A stretch of 64,000 bases of DNA from NCBI GenBank assembly GCA_017520825.1, contig JAFXEX010000014.1, forward strand, positions 69,118 through 133,117, written 5' to 3'. This DNA is from Clostridia bacterium. GTDB taxonomy: Bacteria > Bacillota > Clostridia > Oscillospirales > SIG627. A program made the position numbers and the translations under genes. This document shows positions 55,178-63,946 of this stretch, one piece after another. Numbering within the stretch: position 1 is the stretch's first letter; each line of letters begins with the position of its first letter. Under the pieces are notes generated by a model, which did no database searches, had not been told where the DNA came from, and saw nothing but the letters and a program-made list of their open reading frames with translations.

Positions 55178-57925
55178 ATGAAAAAGTTTACTGTTTTAGT
55201 TTTACTTATACTTTCTCTCGTTATGACGGCGTGTGCGCCCTCTGAAAGCGTTTCGGGAGGAAACCAAGACTCTGAGGCAACCGACGTTCAGGGCGAGCAA
55301 GAGGGGGAAGAGCTTGTGGTTCCCGAGGAGCCCGTAGCTTCGGAAGAGCCTGAAATTTATGAAGATTTACCCGTTCCCGAGGAGCCAAAGTATCTTCTCA
55401 CCGTAGAGGGAGTTACCCTTGAAAACGGCGAGAGCTTAAAGGCTTTTGAATTCGGCGAGAGCGTTACCCTCGTTGCCCAGGATAAGGAGAACGCAGTTTT
55501 CCTTTATTGGCAGGAAAATGGAAGCATACTCACAAACGCCAAGACTCTGTCGGTGACGGTGGAAAGCGACAGATTTATAAAAGCCGTATACGCTGAAAAA
55601 TCACAGGGTGAGCTTGAATTCAACACCGAGGACGGCAAGACCTATTACGTTGCAGGTATTGGAAGCGTTTCGGGAGATACCCTTATTATCCCCGATACCT
55701 ATAACTCCAAGCCCGTTACAAAAATTGCAATGACTGCATTTAAGGATAATACGCAGATTAAGACGGTTGTTATCCCCGATACCGTTACAAGCATTGGCAA
55801 GAATGCTTTTTCGGGATGCACCTCACTTGAATATATAAGCATTCCGTCATCGGTGGAGAAGATAGAGGCAAACGAGCTTTCGGACTGCACCTCTCTTAAA
55901 ACCGTAGCCCTTGGAATTAATATGGATATACCCCTTGGCATTAATTCCGTACAGACCGTTTTCATTACCGAAGGAGTTGAGAAAATCAACTTTGAAGGTC
56001 TGAAAAACGTCAAGGCAGTATTCCTGCCCGAAAGCGTTAAGGAAATAGATGACAACGCCTTTAAAAACTGTGCCTCTCTCATTAAGGTTAATATTCCCGA
56101 GGGCATTGAGAGTATCGGCGATATGGCATTCTACGGCTGTCACTCGCTGGGAAATATAGATTTCCCCAAATCACTTAAAACGATAGGCGAATACGCATTT
56201 TTCCAATGCCGTTCAATGACGGAGCTGAACCTGCCCCAGCTTTTATCAATGGGTGACGGCGCATTTGAAGCCTGCAAGGGAATAACTTCTCTCACACTTC
56301 CCGACAGTCTTTTGACTCTGCCCGAATACGCATTTACGGGCTGTGTCGGACTTAATCGCGTTACTCTTGGCAGAAACGCTACGGAGATTGGAAAGAGCGC
56401 CTTCAAAAATTGTGAAAGACTTACTGAAATAGCGCTTCCCGATACTCTTATGGTTATCGGTGGTGACGCCTTTAAGGGATGCGTTGCCCTTTCGGATATT
56501 TCACTTCCCCATAACGTTACTGAAATGGGAGCAGGCGTGTTCGAGGACTGTAGCGCTTTGACCAAGATTTCTTTGCCCGAAAGACTCTACAAAATCAGTG
56601 AATACTCATTCAGAAGCTGTACCTCGCTCAGAGAGATAACCGTTTGCGTCAACACCAAGAAAGCCGAAATGGGAGCGTTTAACGGCGTTGATAAATTCAA
56701 CGCAACGGTGTACTATAACGGTACTCAGAGCGAGTGGGAGAAGAGCTTTGCAGGGGCGTCTGCCTTTGAAGAAATGGTAATGAAATTCCAGGCGAACACC
56801 CACTATGATTTTGACAGTGGACTCAGATATACCTCAAACGGCGACGGTACCTGTCACGTAGGCAGAATAGACGGCGCAGAGCTTACCGTGTCAGAGCTGA
56901 TTATCCCCGAAAAGAGCCCCAAGGGTGATATAATTACCCATATAGACAAGGACACCTTTAACTCTAACCAGAATATCAAGACGCTGGTTATAGAAGCGCC
57001 TCTTGAGTATATTCCTACAGGCGCATTTTCAAACTGCCTTGAACTTGTCAGCGTTACCTTGCCCGAGACGGTTGAAATAATTGATGATACTGCCTTTGCA
57101 AACTGCTATTCTCTTACCTCAATCAATCTTCCCGAGGGTGTGAGAATTATCGGGGACCGAGCATTTGATTACTGTCAAAGCATAGAAAGCCTGGTACTCC
57201 CCACAGGACTTGAAGTAATAGGGGAGAGCGCCTTTACGGGCTGTAAGTCCCTTAAGGAAGTAACCTTTGGTGAAAACGTAAAAAGCGTGGACAGATACGC
57301 ATTCTCCTTCTGTCAGTCGCTTGAAAAAATCAATATGAACTGTGTTGATACCGTGTTCGGCTCAAGCGTCTTTACCACCAATTCCAATGCGTCGGTATAC
57401 TACGGAAAGGGACTGGATGGTTGGCTCTCACTTGATATGAAGTTCGGCTTGCTTTCAAACGGCATGAAGCTCTTTATTGACGGAGCAGAGCTGACTGAGG
57501 TGGTTATACCCGAAAGCGTTACCGAGATAAAGGAATACGCATTTTCAAACGTTAAGAGCCTTAAAAAAGTAGTTTTCCACGATGGCGTTAAGAAGGTCGG
57601 TGGAGGTGCGTTTTACTACTGCTCGGGACTTGAGGAAATTCTTCTTCCCGAAGGATTGACCGAGATTGAGACAGGATCTTTTGCATATTGTGACAGAGTT
57701 TCACGTCTTGTAATCCCTGCAAGCGTTACCTATATGAGCGAGTCCGCCTTCACGGGTACGGGCTTTGACGAAATTTACTACAACGGAACCAGAGACGATT
57801 GGTATTCCGTAAACAGCCTTAAAAAGTCCGGTCTGGGCTATACTGTCATCTGGTACAGTGAGGAACAGCCAACTGCCAAGGGCTATTATTGGCGTTGGGT
57901 GGATTCCCAGCGAGTTAAGTGGTGA
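55178..57925 (+). CDS. BspA-type leucine-rich-repeat surface lipoprotein (915 aa)
   Basis: It has a lipobox LVMTACAP, an acidic linker, and many repeats of the AF..C..L..I.IP.SV..IG..AF type. Confidence 0.85.
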   Translation: MKKFTVLVLLILSLVMTACAPSESVSGGNQDSEATDVQGEQEGEELVVPEEPVASEEPEIYEDLPVPEEPKYLLTVEGVTLENGESLKAFEFGESVTLVAQDKENAVFLYWQENGSILTNAKTLSVTVESDRFIKAVYAEKSQGELEFNTEDGKTYYVAGIGSVSGDTLIIPDTYNSKPVTKIAMTAFKDNTQIKTVVIPDTVTSIGKNAFSGCTSLEYISIPSSVEKIEANELSDCTSLKTVALGINMDIPLGINSVQTVFITEGVEKINFEGLKNVKAVFLPESVKEIDDNAFKNCASLIKVNIPEGIESIGDMAFYGCHSLGNIDFPKSLKTIGEYAFFQCRSMTELNLPQLLSMGDGAFEACKGITSLTLPDSLLTLPEYAFTGCVGLNRVTLGRNATEIGKSAFKNCERLTEIALPDTLMVIGGDAFKGCVALSDISLPHNVTEMGAGVFEDCSALTKISLPERLYKISEYSFRSCTSLREITVCVNTKKAEMGAFNGVDKFNATVYYNGTQSEWEKSFAGASAFEEMVMKFQANTHYDFDSGLRYTSNGDGTCHVGRIDGAELTVSELIIPEKSPKGDIITHIDKDTFNSNQNIKTLVIEAPLEYIPTGAFSNCLELVSVTLPETVEIIDDTAFANCYSLTSINLPEGVRIIGDRAFDYCQSIESLVLPTGLEVIGESAFTGCKSLKEVTFGENVKSVDRYAFSFCQSLEKINMNCVDTVFGSSVFTTNSNASVYYGKGLDGWLSLDMKFGLLSNGMKLFIDGAELTEVVIPESVTEIKEYAFSNVKSLKKVVFHDGVKKVGGGAFYYCSGLEEILLPEGLTEIETGSFAYCDRVSRLVIPASVTYMSESAFTGTGFDEIYYNGTRDDWYSVNSLKKSGLGYTVIWYSEEQPTAKGYYWRWVDSQRVKW

Positions 57926-57926
57926 C

Positions 57927-58169
57927 GGCTTCATATTTGGGCTAAAACCGAAAATGAAATGATAATTATATTTTGACGATAGGATGTTCGCGACTGTTAG
58001 AAAGCGTGAACACACTTCTTCATTGTCACAGACCTTTTAAGGTAGAAAGCTTCGCTTTCTTTCATCTGTGAAAATTTCATTTTCTTCGCCCCTTGCTTGT
58101 ACTGCCGTACACTTGTACGGCTACGGCTTCGCAATTGACGATTTTATCTCCAAATCTGCGCGCCTTTAC
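57927..58169 (-). mobile_element. L element copy 7 (Lb subtype)
   Basis: It starts 2 nt after the LRR stop codon, in the same orientation as copy 6, and differs from copy 6 at only scattered positions. Confidence 0.85.
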
Positions 58170-58265
58170 AGCTTCATATTTGCGATAAAACCGAAAATGA
58201 AAATATAAATAAAGTTAAAGTAGTGTGTTTGCGTTTGCAATAAAGCGTGAACACATCACTTTTTG
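58170..58265 (-). repeat. L element copy 8, terminal fragment only
   Basis: AGCTTCATATTTGCGATAAAACCGAAAATGAAAATATAAATAAAGTTAAAGTAGTGTGTTTGCG...GCGTGAACACA matches the terminal ~95 bp of Lb copies 2 and 9. Confidence 0.7.
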
Positions 58266-58504
58266 TTACAGGCTTTCCTCAACCCTTAACCTCTCCAAGT
58301 GTAATAGGTACGTGCGTGCCTATCTACTCTATCTGTTCTATCTATATTATCTATTATATCTATATTTGTGTCATTCTGTTGTTTTTTTGTTGTCGTTCTG
58401 TTGTCATTTTGTTGTCATTCTGTTGTCAGAATTTTTAATGATGATGCTTAAAAGCCCTTTATATACAGAGGCTTTTGAGGTGTTTTTTGTTGTTGGATTT
58501 TGTG

Positions 58505-58590
58505 AAATTTTTAATCATTGAAAATTTGCCAACGGCAAATTAACATTAATTGTGAATTGTGCATTGTTAATTGGCAAAGCGTTGTGCATT
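58505..58590. repeat. Hairpin/heptad module (H)
   Basis: AATTTGCC-AAC-GGCAAATT (58523-58541) is followed by ttaattgtgaattgtgcattgttaattg. Confidence 0.75.
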
Positions 58591-58671
58591 TATCTACTTA
58601 TATTATACATATCCACACACTGACATACAATGACATCTTACTGACAACTTTCTAAAAAAAACGCTTTTTTA

Positions 58672-58700
58672 TTGACAAAAGGCTATAAATGTGTTAGAAT
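58672..58700 (+). promoter_or_regulatory. Strong sigma-A promoter (TTGACA-17-TAGAAT) for the metY-metA leader
   Basis: Read directly, with the hexamers at 58672-58677 and 58695-58700. Confidence 0.75.
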
Positions 58701-58731
58701 TCAATAAACATAGGAAAGAGAGGTAAATGAA

Positions 58732-58794
58732 ATGATGCGAATGTGTAACTGCAAAGAATTTCTTTCTGCCTGCTCTATGCCCTTTGGGGCATAA
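58732..58794 (+). CDS. Candidate 20-codon Met/Cys-rich leader peptide MMRMCNCKEFLSACSMPFGA
   Basis: GAGAGG lies about 9 nt upstream of the ATG. Seven of the 20 codons are Met or Cys (4 Met, 3 Cys). It lies between the promoter and a terminator upstream of methionine-biosynthesis genes. Confidence 0.45.
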   Translation: MMRMCNCKEFLSACSMPFGA

Positions 58795-58807
58795 TATAGC
58801 GTTTTTC

Positions 58808-58831
58808 GGCAGAGAGAGTCTCTGCCTTTTT
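58808..58831 (+). terminator. Leader terminator (attenuator) upstream of metY
   Basis: GGCAGAGA-GAG-TCTCTGCC is followed by TTTTT and lies 37 nt before the metY ATG. Confidence 0.7.
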
Positions 58832-58867
58832 CTTTTAATTTATTAAGGATTTTCGGAGGATAATAAA

Positions 58868-60157
58868 ATGGAAAATTTAAAAATTGAAACTAAATGTATT
58901 CAGTCGGGCTACGTGCCCGGAAACGGCGAGCCCAGACAGATACCCATTATTCAAAGCACCACCTTCAAGTATGATACCAGTGAGGATATGGGTAAGCTCT
59001 TTGACCTTGAGGCAAGTGGTTATTTCTACACCAGACTGCAGAACCCCACCAACGACTACGTTGCAGCAAAGCTTGCAGCCCTTGAAGGAGGTACGGCAGG
59101 TATGCTTACCTCGTCGGGTCAGGCAGCTAACTTCTATTCAATCTTCAACATTGCTTCCTGTGGCGACCACGTTGTAGCTGCATCTACCATTTACGGTGGC
59201 ACCTTCAACCTCTTCTCGGTTACTATGAAGCGTATGGGCATTGACTTTACCTTCGTTTCGCCCTATTGCACGGACGAGGAGCTTGAAGCAGCATTCCGTC
59301 CTAACACAAAGGCAGTTTTCGGTGAAACTATTGCCAACCCTGCCCTTGTAGTTCTTGACATTGAACGCTTTGCAAAGGCTGCTCACGCACACGGCGTACC
59401 TCTTATTATAGACAACACCTTTGCCACACCCTTCCTTTGCCGTCCCTTTGAGTTCGGTGCCGACATCGTTACCCACTCTACTACAAAATATCTTGACGGT
59501 CACGGCTCGGGCGTTGGTGGTTGTATTATTGACAGTGGTAAATTCGATTGGACCAAGTATCCCGACAGGTTCCCCGGTCTCTGCACTCCCGACGAAAGCT
59601 ATCACGGAGTAACCTACACCGAGCGCTTCGGTCTTGCAGGCGCGTTCATCACCAAGGCTACTGCACAGCTTATGCGTGACTTCGGCTCTATTCAGTCACC
59701 TCAGAACGCATACCTTCTCAATCTGGGTATCGAAAGCCTCCACGTAAGAATGGAGCGCCATTGCTACAACGGTCAGAAGGTTGCCGAATACCTTGAAAAG
59801 AACCCCAACGTTGCTTGGGTGAAATACAGTGGACTTCCCTCGGACAGAGACTACGCTCTTGCGCAGAAATATCTTCCTCTCGGCTCTTGTGGAGTTGTAA
59901 GCTTTGGCGTAAAGGGTGGCAGAAAGGCAGCCGAAAGATTTATGAAGAATCTGAAGCTTGCAAGCATCGAAACCCACGTTGCCGATGCTAAAACCTGTTG
60001 TCTGCATCCTGCATCTGCAACTCACCGTCAGATGAACGACACAGAGCTTGAGGCTGCAGGCGTTTCTCCCGACCTTGTAAGACTGTCGGTTGGTATCGAA
60101 AACGTTGACGACCTTATTGCAGACCTTGCACAAGCCCTTGAAAAGGCGGGTGAATAA
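58868..60157 (+). CDS. metY: O-acetylhomoserine sulfhydrylase (PLP-dependent)
   Basis: It is a Cys/Met-metabolism PLP family member with the [11 protein letters not shown] lysine motif, 429 aa long. Confidence 0.9.
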
Positions 60158-60159
60158 TA

Positions 60160-61074
60160 ATGCCCATCAGAATACCCAACTCTTTGCCTGCAACTCAGAC
60201 GCTGATTGACGAAAACATATTCGTTATGACCGAGACGAGGGCTTTGACACAGGATATTCGACCCCTACAGATACTCCTTCTCAATCTTATGCCCACGAAA
60301 ATAGTTACCGAAACCCAATTTGCAAGGCTTCTCGGTAACACGCCCCTGCAGGTTGAGCTTGATTTCTTGCAGACGGCGACACACAAGGCGACTCACATCT
60401 CCTCCGATCATCTTCTTGCCTTCTACAAGGTGTTTGACGAAATAAAGCACAAAAAGTACGACGGAATGATAATTACGGGCGCTCCCGTAGAGCTTATGCC
60501 CTTCGAGGAGGTCAACTATTGGAATGAGCTTTGCGAGATAATGGAGTGGTCAAAGACCCACGTCACAAGCACCATGCATATCTGCTGGGGCGCGCAGGCA
60601 GGACTTTATTATCACTTTGGAATTGACAAAAAGCCTCTCCCCGAAAAGATGTTCGGTGTGTTTCCTCATAAGGTGGTACACAAGAATTCAATTCTTTTCC
60701 GTGGCGTTGACGACCTGTTCTACGTTCCTCATTCAAGGCATACCACCGTTGACGTTGAGGACGTGCGCAAGGTTCCTGCACTGAAAATTCTTACCCTTTC
60801 CGACAAGGCAGGGCTTCATTGCTGTATGACCGAGGGGGGACGTCAGATATTCGTGACGGGACATTCGGAATACGATGCCGATACCCTTAAAAACGAATAC
60901 CTGCGTGACAAAAATCAGGGACTTGACATAAAGGTTCCCGAAAACTATTTCCCTCACGACGACGATACCCTTGAGCCCGTGGTAAAGTGGCGCGCTCACG
61001 CTAATTTACTGTTCTCCAATTGGCTCAATTACTTCGTATATCAGACAACGCCATACGATATAAACGAAATATAG
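60160..61074 (+). CDS. metA: Homoserine O-acyltransferase, MetA family
   Basis: It has MPIRIP...LLNLMPTK...ICWGAQA motifs typical of MetA and begins 2 nt after the metY stop. Confidence 0.92.
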
Positions 61075-61100
61075 TGAAGCATTGCTTCACTATATTTTTG
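61071..61100 (+). terminator. metA rho-independent terminator
   Basis: ATAGTGAAGC-ATT-GCTTCACTAT is followed by a T run. The stem overlaps the TAG stop. Confidence 0.85.
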
Positions 61101-61104
61101 TTTA

Positions 61105-61295
61105 TGGTTAAATTTGCCCTGACGGACAGGTTAAATTGCCATAGGCAGTTAAATATCGGCTTTGCCGATGGGATATTTTTCAAACAAGGGTTGAAAAGTT
61201 ATGGTTAATTTGCTTTGCAAATCTTCAATGATTGTAAATTTCGCAAAGCGAAATTGTCCTTAATTGTGCATTGTTAATTGTGAACTGTGTATTTA
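61105..61295. repeat. Extended hairpin module (H)
   Basis: It contains ATCGGC-TTT-GCCGAT, ATTTGC-TTT-GCAAAT and AATTTCGC-AAA-GCGAAATT, then gtccttaattgtgcattgttaattgtgaactg. Confidence 0.8.
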
Positions 61296-61324
61296 TTTTC
61301 GTTCTCACCCAAAAGACACGCCGT
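61296..61324 (+). repeat. La terminus fragment
   Basis: TTTTCGTTCTCACCCAAAAGACACGCCGT. Confidence 0.65.
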
Positions 61325-61377
61325 AAACACTAAATGTTGTATAGTTTTTTAAAAAAAATTGGAATATTATACCATAC

Positions 61378-61384
61378 TTCGACA
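61378..61384 (-). promoter_or_regulatory. Possible Spo0A box (TGTCGAA) upstream of spoIIE
   Basis: The minus strand reads TGTCGAA, about 80 nt upstream of the spoIIE ATG. In Bacillus, spoIIE is Spo0A-activated. This is a single 7-mer match only. Confidence 0.3.
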
Positions 61385-61459
61385 TAAGATATTATCTTTT
61401 AATGATATGCTAAAGGCAACCGAAAAAGAACGGTACAAATTAAAAGAAAGGAATTCTTT

Positions 61460-63946
61460 ATGTGGAAAATCCGTGAAACTGAAAGGACGGATAAAAAAAC
61501 GCCTGACTTCGAAAAGGAGTCAAGGCTTAAGGACGAGACGCGAAGCTTTTTCGTGTCAGCTAAAGGGTACGTAGCAAAGAGTGTGGCTCTTTACTCGGGA
61601 CTTTTAAAAAAGCTTTTTGATAAGGCGTCGGATATGCTGTCGGAGGAGCTGGGGGAGGAGGGGGCAGACTACAAAAAGCGCACCAAGACCTTTTTACTGT
61701 CTTTGCTTTTCGTGGCAGTTGGCTTTATCGTGTCCTCTACTGCCTTTGTTGAGGGCGCTTATCCACTGTCTATTGCAATCGTTTCGTCGGCAGGAAGCCG
61801 TGTAAAAAAAGGCTCAAGGTTTACACCCCGTCTGATTATGGGACTTGCTTTCTTTTCGGTCATTCTGTCCACTCTCAGAATGGGTGGTAACGGTCTGTTG
61901 TATTTTACGGTAATCTTTACGGTTTTCGTGTTGAGAAGCGTGGTAACCTCGGGTGAATTTAACGAGGGAATAGTTTACAGAACCCTCACCTCATTTTTCG
62001 CATCCCTGGTGCTTTCTGCCTGCATTTCGGTAATTGATTCCTTCAGCATTGACTCGGTGTTCACGGGGGTCAGCGTTGCCGTAACGGCGCCTATTTTTAC
62101 TTATATGCTTTCGGGCTTCTTCGTTACTCTCGGAGAGCCAATGTTTGAGTCGGGAATGAAAATGAGGGCAGAGGTGGGTATTGCAGCCATATTTTTTGCC
62201 TTCGTGCTTGCTCTGTCCGATTTTGCCATATTCGGCTTTTCTCTCGCTGCAACCGTTGCCTTTGCCGTAACCTGTATGGTGGCAAAGACTCTTGGCTCGA
62301 TGCACGGGGGAGTGTTCGGAATGCTGGGTGGCATTGCTGCAGGGGGTGGGCTTTTTGCCTCCTCCTTCGGTGTAATCGGCGTTGTGTCGGCAGTATTCTT
62401 CGCCGTGTCCGACCTCCTTGCCCTTTCCGTAGCCGTACTTATTTCAAGCGCAGTTTCCATTTACGTGGGTGGCTTTGAGGGCTTGATAACCACTCTTCCC
62501 GAGGTACTTTTCGGCAGTCTGGTTATTTACCCCATATTGAAGGCTATGCCCATTGCAGAGGAGAAAATAAGCCTTATTTCCAACACCGTAAAGACCTCGG
62601 AGAAGCACGAAAGAGAGAGCGTGGAAAGAGGGCTTGAAAAGCTGTCGGGCACCTTTGCCTCTCTTTCGGAGGTGTTTTTTGCAGTGACCGATACTATGAA
62701 AACGCCAACTGTTGAGGACGTTACCTCGGCTGTGAACAAGGCGTACAACAAGGTGTGCGCCACCTGCTCTATGTCGGGAATGTGCTGGAGTAAGCACTAT
62801 ACTGACAGTAACGATGCTAAAAACAGTATTGCCCAAAGGATTATCGCCTCGGGCAGAGCAACGAAAAACGATTTTCCTCAACCCTTTGCAGAAAGGTGCA
62901 TAAAGCTGGACGGTATTCTGGACTGCATAAATAAGAGGTATGCAAGCCTTTGCTATACTGCCAGTGACGTTACCCACGCCAATCTGATAGCAGGGGAGTA
63001 CCACACCGTTTCCAAGCTTTTTCAAAGCACGGCGCAGGGCTTTCGTGACTCAGAGGCAGAGAATATGGAGCTTGCCGGCAAGGCGTTCCGTGCAATGCGT
63101 GAGCTTGCCACTCCCTTTGGAAGAATTGAGGCGTGGGGCAGACGCAGAAGCGTAATTGACGTATTCGGCGTTCAGCCCGAGAGAATAGAGCGTTCTACGG
63201 CAGAAATACTTGCTGCCTTTGAAACCGAATGCTCAATGCTCTTTGAGGAGCCTGAATTTATAAAGCTGGAAACCACCACGGCGCTCCGTATGAAAAGGCG
63301 CGCGCCCATAACCCTTGAATGCGCCAAAAAAAGTATGAGTAAGAAGGGGGAGAGGGTGAACGGTGACAGTATCTCCTTTTTCGAGAAGGACGACGGTCAC
63401 TTTTACGCCCTTATATGCGACGGAATGGGAAGTGGCAGGAGCGCTGCACTTACCTCACGTCTTGCCTCGGTTTTTCTTGAAAAGCTTCTGACCTGTACCG
63501 ACGATAAGAGGGTAACTCTTGAAATGCTTAATTCAATGCTTATGGCAAAAAAGGACGAGTGCTTCACTACGCTGGATCTGGTGGAAATAGACCTTTTTGA
63601 AATGAAGGCAAGCTTTATGAAGGCAGGAGCGTCACCCTCTTTCGTCATAAGAGAGGATAAGGTGTATAAGGTGAATTCGGCAACAATGCCTGCCGGAATA
63701 ATCTCAAAGCTATCTGCCGAGGAAACGAAAATAAGCGTAAAGAAGGGCGACCTTATCGTTATGCTATCCGACGGAATAATCGCTTCAAACGAAATTTCCG
63801 ACGAGGAAAATCCTTGGCTTGTGGAGTTGCTTGACTGCAACCGTGACAAATGCCCGTCTGAGCTTTGTGACCTTTTACTCAACGACGCTCTGTCACGCTT
63901 TGGGGCGTCAGACGATATGTCTGTAGCTTGTGTATGCGTTAAATAA
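61460..63946 (+). CDS. spoIIE: Stage II sporulation protein E (PP2C phosphatase)
   Basis: It has about 10 TM segments N-terminally and a C-terminal PP2C domain (ALICDGMGSG...DDMSVACV), 828 aa in total. Confidence 0.9.
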   Translation: MWKIRETERTDKKTPDFEKESRLKDETRSFFVSAKGYVAKSVALYSGLLKKLFDKASDMLSEELGEEGADYKKRTKTFLLSLLFVAVGFIVSSTAFVEGAYPLSIAIVSSAGSRVKKGSRFTPRLIMGLAFFSVILSTLRMGGNGLLYFTVIFTVFVLRSVVTSGEFNEGIVYRTLTSFFASLVLSACISVIDSFSIDSVFTGVSVAVTAPIFTYMLSGFFVTLGEPMFESGMKMRAEVGIAAIFFAFVLALSDFAIFGFSLAATVAFAVTCMVAKTLGSMHGGVFGMLGGIAAGGGLFASSFGVIGVVSAVFFAVSDLLALSVAVLISSAVSIYVGGFEGLITTLPEVLFGSLVIYPILKAMPIAEEKISLISNTVKTSEKHERESVERGLEKLSGTFASLSEVFFAVTDTMKTPTVEDVTSAVNKAYNKVCATCSMSGMCWSKHYTDSNDAKNSIAQRIIASGRATKNDFPQPFAERCIKLDGILDCINKRYASLCYTASDVTHANLIAGEYHTVSKLFQSTAQGFRDSEAENMELAGKAFRAMRELATPFGRIEAWGRRRSVIDVFGVQPERIERSTAEILAAFETECSMLFEEPEFIKLETTTALRMKRRAPITLECAKKSMSKKGERVNGDSISFFEKDDGHFYALICDGMGSGRSAALTSRLASVFLEKLLTCTDDKRVTLEMLNSMLMAKKDECFTTLDLVEIDLFEMKASFMKAGASPSFVIREDKVYKVNSATMPAGIISKLSAEETKISVKKGDLIVMLSDGIIASNEISDEENPWLVELLDCNRDKCPSELCDLLLNDALSRFGASDDMSVACVCVK

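Follow-up and report, generated by a model that had tools for sequence, protein, structure and literature searches.

Classical transcription attenuation is textbook knowledge for Trp, His, Leu, Thr, Phe, and Ile/Val, and methionine genes are known under the control of S-adenosylmethionine (SAM) riboswitches, T-boxes, or proteins. Here, we analyze the leader of the metY–metA operon in a 64,000-nucleotide stretch of DNA from a Clostridia bacterium (contig JAFXEX010000014.1, positions 69,118–133,117 of the forward strand). We refer to this whole stretch as the window and give all coordinates as positions within it; all features described lie on its forward strand. The leader contains a 20-codon open reading frame (ORF) with 4 Met and 3 Cys codons, followed by an intrinsic terminator. 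Judging from its conservation and from modeled RNA pairings, it is likely to be a classical ribosome-mediated transcription attenuator that senses AUG (Met) codons and probably also the adjacent UGY (Cys) codon.

The metY leader is organized like the leaders of the Escherichia coli trpL and Salmonella hisL type (also leuL, thrL, pheL, and ilvL). It shares with them a promoter-proximal Shine–Dalgarno (SD) sequence with a short ORF rich in codons for the end product, the alternative pairings 1:2, 2:3, and 3:4, and an intrinsic terminator before the first structural gene. The predicted response is also the same, in that a stall over region 1 leads to readthrough, whereas arrival of the ribosome at the stop codon leads to termination. 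In contrast to the trpL/hisL type, the regulatory codon AUG is identical to the start triplet and is placed directly after the start, region 1 includes the SD of the leader itself, and a constant small hairpin is located at the apex of the antiterminator. Moreover, the host belongs to the Clostridia and is not a proteobacterium, and no Rfam leader family is matched. At the sequence level, the metY leader has every testable defining feature of the classical attenuators, and it is not homologous to the leader families of Rfam.

Leader-peptide attenuators are rare in Firmicutes. Described examples are the his leader of hisS/hisZ in bacilli (PMC2965389) and the Leu-rich ilv–leu attenuator peptide of Staphylococcus aureus and Listeria (PMC5794164, PMC5864092). 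As in these cases, classical attenuation would replace another sensor of the same genes in a group where T-boxes and riboswitches dominate, whereas the metY leader features Met and not His or Leu/Ile, occurs in gut and rumen Clostridia that are probably Oscillospirales, and is unrelated in sequence.

Two described elements involve sulfur amino acids. In Streptomyces lividans, a metL leader peptide was predicted upstream of metNIQ by RNA-seq annotation (PMC8079986). This metL is likewise a short ORF with mixed Met/Cys codons (…RCMCRRMCAF) ahead of a methionine-related operon, but it is leaderless, comprises 29 amino acids with the Met/Cys codons at the C terminus, has no identified intrinsic terminator, and precedes a transporter operon; the metY leader, in contrast, carries a full, conserved terminator/antiterminator set. 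The poly-Cys leaderless short ORF (sORF) attenuators known from mycobacteria sequester the downstream SD and thereby affect translation (bioRxiv 10.1101/834739). They also place a sensor made of sulfur-amino-acid codons in a short upstream ORF, but feature consecutive Cys codons, no 5′ untranslated region (UTR), and no terminator, whereas the metY leader shows an SD-led ORF in which Met dominates, Cys codons that are non-consecutive (except for CCC in one related locus, L162), and an intrinsic terminator.

With the SAM-I riboswitch (S-box) and the Met T-box, the metY leader would have in common the controlled genes (metY, metA, and metK) and premature termination in Firmicutes. Unlike these, it features neither an aptamer nor a specifier/T-box, and what is sensed would be charged Met-tRNA, by way of the ribosome, instead of SAM or uncharged tRNA bound to the RNA. 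No RNA element for methionine genes emerged from a survey of Actinobacteria (PMC1262725). In the openly searchable full-text literature (subscription-only literature lay outside the search), we found no terminator-type Met leader peptide, the only Met-type case being metL of S. lividans (PMC8079986). The metY leader most likely represents a new amino-acid specificity (Met, possibly Met and Cys) for classical attenuation, predicted here for two independent families of leaders from gut and rumen Clostridia.

If this is true, the ribosome can sense methionine although AUG is also the start codon, and the leader provides a concrete system for the behavior of initiator versus elongator Met-tRNA pools under limitation. 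It would also be a clear example of one sensor taking the place of another (S-box versus leader peptide) in Clostridia of gut and rumen that are abundant but uncultured. In addition, the leader flags a class of regulatory sORFs that is overlooked by gene callers and Rfam-based annotation.

Anatomy of the metY leader and its alternative pairings

The leader starts with a σ70-type promoter (58672–58700) that consists of the −35 element TTGACA (58672–58677), a 17-nt spacer, and the −10 element TAGAAT (58695–58700), which is TG-extended (TGtTAGAAT, 58692–58700). With 11 of 12 positions matched and the TG present, it is the top site among the promoter-like sites compared across 58000–61600, and transcription would start near 58707. 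The 5′ UTR of ∼25 nt contains the leader SD GAGAGG (58718–58723), which is located 8 nt ahead of the ATG at 58732. The ORF encodes MMRMCNCKEFLSACSMPFGA (58732–58794, with the stop codon TAA at 58792–58794) and makes up about half of the ∼125-nt leader.

Region 1 (58717–58733), the anti-antiterminator strand, comprises the SD and the start codon. Its pairing partner is region 2, the pyrimidine tract UUUCUUUCUGCCUGCUCU (58758–58776), which can alternatively pair with the 5′ arm of the terminator. Regions 3 and 4 form the intrinsic terminator (58808–58836), in which the 5′ arm GGCAGAGA (58808–58815), the loop GAG, and the 3′ arm UCUCUGCC (58819–58826) are followed by UUUUUCUUUU. At the DNA level, the terminator reads GGCAGAGA-GAG-TCTCTGCC (58808–58826) and is followed by the T run TTTTTCTTTT, the end of which lies 36 nt before the ATG of metY (58868). 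In the antiterminator, positions 58761–58770 pair with 58808–58817 and positions 58771–58774 with 58798–58801. Its apex is the small hairpin UAUGCCC-UUUG-GGGCAUA (58776–58793), which is present in both folding states. The 3′ arm of this hairpin overlaps the stop codon of the leader ORF, which itself is located 13 nt upstream of region 3.

The original prediction for this locus, which was made from the sequence alone, had described the promoter, the SD, the ORF with its 4 Met and 3 Cys codons, the hairpin over the stop codon, and the terminator ahead of metY–metA. All of these elements are in place, with coordinates that agree to within one base. It had also proposed that the tract pairs with the purines of the ribosome-binding site. 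This pairing is indeed found in the minimum free energy (MFE) structure, but the purine stretch GGAAAGAG is located at 58713–58720, one base away from the predicted position, and region 1 spans from the SD to the first codons (58717–58733) and not only the purines of the ribosome-binding site. The SD of metY is unpaired in the MFE structure.

In the window, the individual helices have energies of −14.4 (1:2), −9.8 (small hairpin), and −12.2 kcal/mol (3:4), and the full terminated and antiterminated states amount to −36.4 and −29.0 kcal/mol, respectively. The proposed pairing of the tract (58760–58770) with the terminator 5′ arm GGCAGAGAGAG was confirmed with an RNAduplex energy of −17.5 kcal/mol, which was reached by 4 of 500 dinucleotide shuffles of the ORF.

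For comparison, we collected 180 loci encoding close MetY relatives (designated L plus a number). Homologous leaders, which we call type A, are present in 11 of these, giving 12 loci and 8 distinct sequences together with the window; at least two loci (L012 and L043) carry a second type of leader, type B. Over the leaders, the 2:3 duplex ranges from −11.4 to −28.5 kcal/mol and beats at least 98% of the dinucleotide shuffles in 6 of 10 cases. Stepwise folding yields the same order of events in 7 of the 8 type A leaders. The 1:2 helix and the small hairpin form before region 3 is made, the 2:3 helix forms once region 3 is made, and the 1:2 helix, the hairpin, and the terminator are found once region 4 is made. 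The signal for mutually exclusive 1:2, 2:3, and 3:4 pairing is weak in L162 and L170.

The pairing partners also co-vary between lineages, as shown by comparing the duplex energies of cognate region pairs with those of lineage-permuted (non-cognate) pairs. For the 2:3 pairs, 0.8% of the permutations (and 0 of 265 derangements) were as good as the cognate combination, whereas the cognate 3:4 and 1:2 pairs beat 99.4% and 96.5% of the permutations, respectively. Region 2 follows the changes in regions 3 and 4: The window features UUUCUGCC, GGCAGAGA, and UCUCUGCC in regions 2, 3, and 4, compared with CCCUGUCU, GGCAGGG, and CCCUGCU in L001, and an A:U pair of the window is replaced by a G:C pair of L001 in the 2:3 and 3:4 pairings alike. 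RNAalifold on a MAFFT alignment recovers the small hairpin and the terminator only. Because region 2 slides relative to AUGCCC between lineages, column-based covariation counts for the 1:2 and 2:3 pairings were dropped, and the cognate duplex-energy test was used. The 1:2/2:3/3:4 architecture that had been proposed for the leader is thus borne out by stepwise folding, by the shuffles, and by the cognate-partner test.

The arm AUGCCC of the small hairpin holds the motif UGCC, which is complementary to the GGCA that opens the terminator 5′ arm (58778–58791 versus 58808–58811), and the 3′ arm of the hairpin, GGGGCA, resembles region 3. The UGCC of the hairpin arm is part of the best 2:3 duplex in L170. 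Pairings beyond the simple four-region scheme may exist.

Conservation of the leader and a second leader family

The type A leaders belong to loci with 89–100% identical MetY across the 8 distinct sequences. Apart from that of the window, the leader peptides are MMRMCDLRDFLSALSMPFGA (L161), MMRMCDLREFLSALFMPCGA (L167), MMRMCCCEKVSFALCMPFLGRKM (L162–L164), MMKRMCEKKKLFLSLGMPFGA (L170 and L171), MMMLLMCNSKNMLSPCLRMPQRAKA (L001), MMMLRMCNSKNMLSPCLRMPQGAKV (L174 and L176), and MMMLRMCNSKNMLSLCLRMPQGAKV (L175, with Leu in place of Pro15). The promoter pattern TTGACA-N14-TGTGyTAnAAT is kept in all type A loci, as is the SD. Reading frame 0 is open in all 8 leaders, the other two frames mostly contain stop codons, and all indels inside the ORF are multiples of 3 nt.

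At the N terminus, all type A peptides show the motif MM(K)RMC or MMML(L/R)MC. The sequence CGAATGTG is invariant, and within the block CGA-AUG-UGY, the Cys codon changes only synonymously (TGT/TGC). In the window, conservation and the ribosome masking described below delimit the putative sensor codons to 58735–58746, comprising Met2 (58735–58737), Arg3 (CGA), Met4 (58741–58743), and Cys5 (58744–58746). CGA occupies codon 3 in 7 of the 8 distinct type A leaders and is a minor Arg codon in the long ORFs of the window (3.2 per 1000 codons, 8% of the Arg codons). Located between Met2 and Met4 (58738–58740), it might prolong the dwell time of the ribosome in the sensing window.

Downstream of the N-terminal motif, the GCCC/GGGC stem of the small hairpin is kept under six different loops (UUUG, UUCG, UGCG, UUUUU, CAAA, and CAAG). 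A terminator is found in all homologous leaders, with GCAG…CUGC and the U run conserved and with compensatory changes in two stem pairs. Met16 is also conserved; it sits in the 5′ arm of the hairpin and was probably kept as part of AUGCCC. The expectation that related genomes would preserve the ORF with its Met and Cys codons and the alternative pairings holds for the ORF, the SD, the N-terminal Met codons, and the pairings. It does not hold for Cys7 and Cys14, which are not conserved and were lost in the closest relatives of the window.

The type B leaders ahead of metY–metA in L012 (MNKMFTSCGMMMRNTVFGSF) and L043 (MKMYMMMNVMMMPCTVFGLFPYPVC) have no sequence similarity to type A, but display the same layout of promoter, SD, an ORF with MMM runs, and a strong terminator. 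In type B, region 2 within the ORF (ACCGUCUUUGG) is a copy of the terminator 3′ arm (region 4), and region 1 at the SD (AAGGCGGU) is a copy of the terminator 5′ arm (region 3). The strongest reason to believe that the element is built around translating Met codons is this second, independent occurrence.

Met codons are enriched in every leader, with 3–7 internal Met codons each. Calculated from the ATG codon frequency of the window itself (2.2%), the 3 internal Met codons among 19 in the window leader correspond to p = 0.008, and the 7 among 24 in L043 correspond to p = 6 × 10⁻⁷. We also ranked all 7709 ATG-started sORFs of 10–40 amino acids on both strands of the window and all loci. The nine most Met-rich sORFs of up to 26 amino acids are all metY leaders. 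Met-rich sORFs near metY in L081, L095, L096, and L102 were rejected as leaders, because each is located within the preceding coding gene in a different reading frame.

With nhmmer profiles of type A and type B, no further copies were detected in the window and all loci, and L165 was matched over the promoter part only. In L165 (1400–1500), the homologous promoter is directly followed by a terminator-like hairpin, AAAGGCAGAGA-ttggc-TCTCTGTCTTTTTT, as though regions 1 to 3 had been lost. L166 (1440–1500) and L172 (1140–1200), which lack the leader ORF, have in common a short, conserved 5′ UTR, AAAATCAGC(R)GT(A)TTTTT(T)AC, located between the promoter and the SD of metY. In one further lineage (P0054), metY is found after an acyl-acyl carrier protein thioesterase gene, with no leader and no metA.

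Ribosome position, proposed mechanism, and alternative explanations

The effect of a ribosome on the leader was modeled by masking a footprint of −15 to +12 around the A site, followed by equilibrium folding with the terminator probability as the readout. When the A site of the window leader is placed on codons 2–6 (Met2, Arg3, Met4, Cys5, and Asn6), the terminator probability is ∼0, with all of region 3 base-paired to the tract. From approximately codon 7 onward, the tract is occluded and the terminator returns. L161, L167, L174, and L175 show the same profile (∼0 at codons 2–6 and high from codon 7), and the profile is also clear in L043. The original prediction had considered the direction of the mechanism not derivable, whereas the masking model provides one: A stall at codons 2–6 would give readthrough, and a ribosome from approximately codon 7 to the stop codon would give termination. 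According to this model, Cys7, Cys14, and Met16 are not sensor codons.

In the mechanism that we propose, a ribosome would load on the SD (58718–58723) and translate the ORF as RNA polymerase approaches the terminator. When Met-tRNA(Met) (and possibly Cys-tRNA) is scarce, the ribosome would wait with codon 2, 4, or 5 in the A site and cover region 1 (58717–58733), leaving region 2 (58758–58776) free to pair with 58808–58817 as soon as these positions are made. The resulting antiterminator, with the small hairpin at its apex, would prevent formation of the terminator, and metY–metA would be transcribed. When Met-tRNA is plentiful, the ribosome would pass region 2 and reach the stop codon in the hairpin, thereby parting region 2 from region 3, so that the 3:4 hairpin and the U run would end transcription at ∼58827–58831. 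If the leader is not translated at all, the 1:2 helix would form first, and the terminator would again be favored.

The same switch could also be set by a ribosome that does not respond to Met in particular, but to general translation capacity, through a slow start of the ORF with its rare CGA, or to the supply of cysteine or sulfur only. A general sensor would be in line with the conserved CGA, but it leaves unexplained why Met is enriched in every leader and why type B features MMM runs, for which there is no other obvious purpose. For a sensor of cysteine or sulfur, one could point to the Cys codon found immediately after the Met cluster of all type A leaders, to the Cys codons near the Met runs of each type B leader and the CCC of L162, and to MetY itself, which falls into the bifunctional O-acetylhomoserine/O-acetylserine (OAH/OAS) sulfhydrylase subfamily. 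Yet, Cys is single in L161, L170, and L012, where the probability of at least one Cys is ∼0.27, and the closest relatives of the window manage without Cys7 and Cys14. We consider such a Met-independent attenuator unlikely.

Known RNA families do not account for the leader. At the gathering score, Rfam 15 gives a single match over the 64-kb window, a tRNA (tRNA-Glu according to ARAGORN). In permissive mode (to E = 10), the region 58500–58900 yields only noise from unrelated families (E ≥ 0.4) and none of the leader-peptide families (Trp_leader, His_leader, Leu_leader, Thr_leader, Phe leader, and Lactococcus leu/phe leader). SAM riboswitches (SAM-I/IV, SAM-II/V, SAM-III, SAM-VI, and SAM/SAH) have no match in the window or in any leader-bearing locus. 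The T-box (RF00230) is not matched by Rfam either, and the motif GGTGGnACCnCG is absent from all collected loci. The loci that bear the leader ORF show zero Rfam matches of any kind.

This negative result is informative, because the same SAM-I model detects riboswitches at 78–80 bits upstream of metK–metY–metA in L010 (1627–1723), L011 (1624–1719), and L013 (1618–1714), and it agrees with the original prediction, which had seen no S-box-like sequence. A crude S-box hidden Markov model added only L082 (819–913). In these four loci, metY–metA is located downstream of metK, with SAM-I ahead of metK; a flavin mononucleotide riboswitch is found ∼900 nt further upstream in L010 and L013. With an S-box in these loci and a leader peptide in others, the same genes use different sensors depending on the lineage.

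As SAM-I occurs in relatives and Firmicute met genes are usually controlled by S-box or T-box, it could be argued that a ligand or a protein operates the switch (a so far undescribed RNA binding SAM, Met, or S-adenosylhomocysteine, or an RNA-binding regulator), with an incidental ORF. A new RNA class would by definition be missing from Rfam, and L165 carries the promoter and terminator without the ORF. However, about half of the leader is taken up by the ORF, and the invariant bases are those of the start region, CGA-AUG-UGY, the hairpin stem, and GCAG, with no conserved junction or loop bases. The frame and the SD are conserved, indels come in steps of 3 nt, and the Cys codon changes synonymously; the unrelated type B family also has an SD-preceded ORF with Met runs. 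Furthermore, region 2 slides relative to the hairpin, which is unsuited to a fixed aptamer. Taken together, a ligand- or protein-driven switch appears improbable.

That an ordinary promoter and 5′ UTR are combined with a fortuitous sORF and a non-regulating hairpin is disfavored and very improbable, despite an unremarkable folding z-score and close relatives that do without the leader, given that 8 distinct sequences preserve the complete unit, that a second family shows it again, that Met-rich sORFs are concentrated exactly at metY leaders, and that the pairing partners co-vary. Nor is there evidence for an arrest by a nascent peptide that responds to SAM, as with CGS1 of plants; where the peptide is conserved, RNA or codon identity mostly accounts for this.

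Several observations weigh against a methionine-sensing attenuator. The whole-leader folding z-score of −1.5 is not significant, and in L161, L162, L170, and L001, the 2:3 duplex does not clearly exceed the shuffles, of which 35–131 of 500 are as good. The MFE structure of the naked RNA before region 4 is made is already the antiterminator, and default termination without translation therefore depends on kinetics. The masking profile is weak or ambiguous at equilibrium in L162, L170, L001, and L012; in L012, a very stable terminator wins at equilibrium, which we take as a limit of thermodynamic modeling. Met16 is conserved at a position where a stall favors termination. The distribution of the leader is patchy, the ORF being absent in the equally close relatives L002–L005, L165, L166, L168, L169, L172, and L173 (MetY 86–92%), and in L165 (MetY 92%), the promoter and terminator are retained without it. 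In addition, methionine starvation should leave less initiator tRNA charged, so that the leader would be translated less often and termination would be promoted. Finally, the analysis covered the sequence elements, their conservation, the co-variation of the pairing partners, and computed folding energies, and the transcript ends, the stalling, and the response to methionine are predicted from these.

Beyond the methionine-sensing attenuator as such, the leader might act as a dual sensor of sulfur amino acids that also reads the balance of initiator and elongator Met-tRNA and that would have arisen two or more times in gut Clostridia, in the position occupied by an S-box in some relatives. With the invariant AUG-UGY located at the 3′ edge of the sensing window, a lack of either Met-tRNA or Cys-tRNA would switch on the operon for MetY, a branch-point enzyme of the bifunctional OAH/OAS subfamily. 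Because the sensor triplet is the start triplet and directly follows the start codon, the leader would respond to the balance of both Met-tRNA pools. This extended version is tentative, and we regard it as possible rather than probable.

The metY–metA operon and surrounding DNA

The operon downstream of the leader comprises metY (58868–60157), encoding an O-acetylhomoserine sulfhydrylase of the OAH/OAS sulfhydrylase subfamily (TIGR01326, 581 bits; cutoff 495), and metA (60160–61074), encoding an acetyl-type homoserine O-acetyltransferase (NF047918, 491 bits; cutoff 460.5). It ends in a terminator-like hairpin (61066–61098). The neighboring genes encode a leucine-rich repeat (LRR) adhesin-like protein and SpoIIE.

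Short tandem repeat arrays are found at 58320–58430 and 58620–58650, in the 745-bp intergenic region that precedes the leader promoter. One array has a period of 9 nt (CTATCTNNT, ∼4 copies), and another has a period of 11 nt (TGTTGTCATTC, 5–6 copies). An inverted partner array, TGACA(T/A), is present in 3 copies with 11-nt spacing directly upstream of the −35 element, and a comparable array of three TGACAT copies is found upstream of the promoter in L161. The arrays may be sites for a DNA-binding regulator that would provide a second layer of control.

Further upstream, after the gene of the LRR adhesin-like protein, two segments of ∼35–49 nt are duplicated within 57925–58255 at a distance of ∼242 nt (57925–57973 with 58168–58216, and 57980–58014 with 58221–58255). 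Each duplicated segment ends in the hairpin-like sequence GTGTTCACGC…/…GCGTGAACAC.

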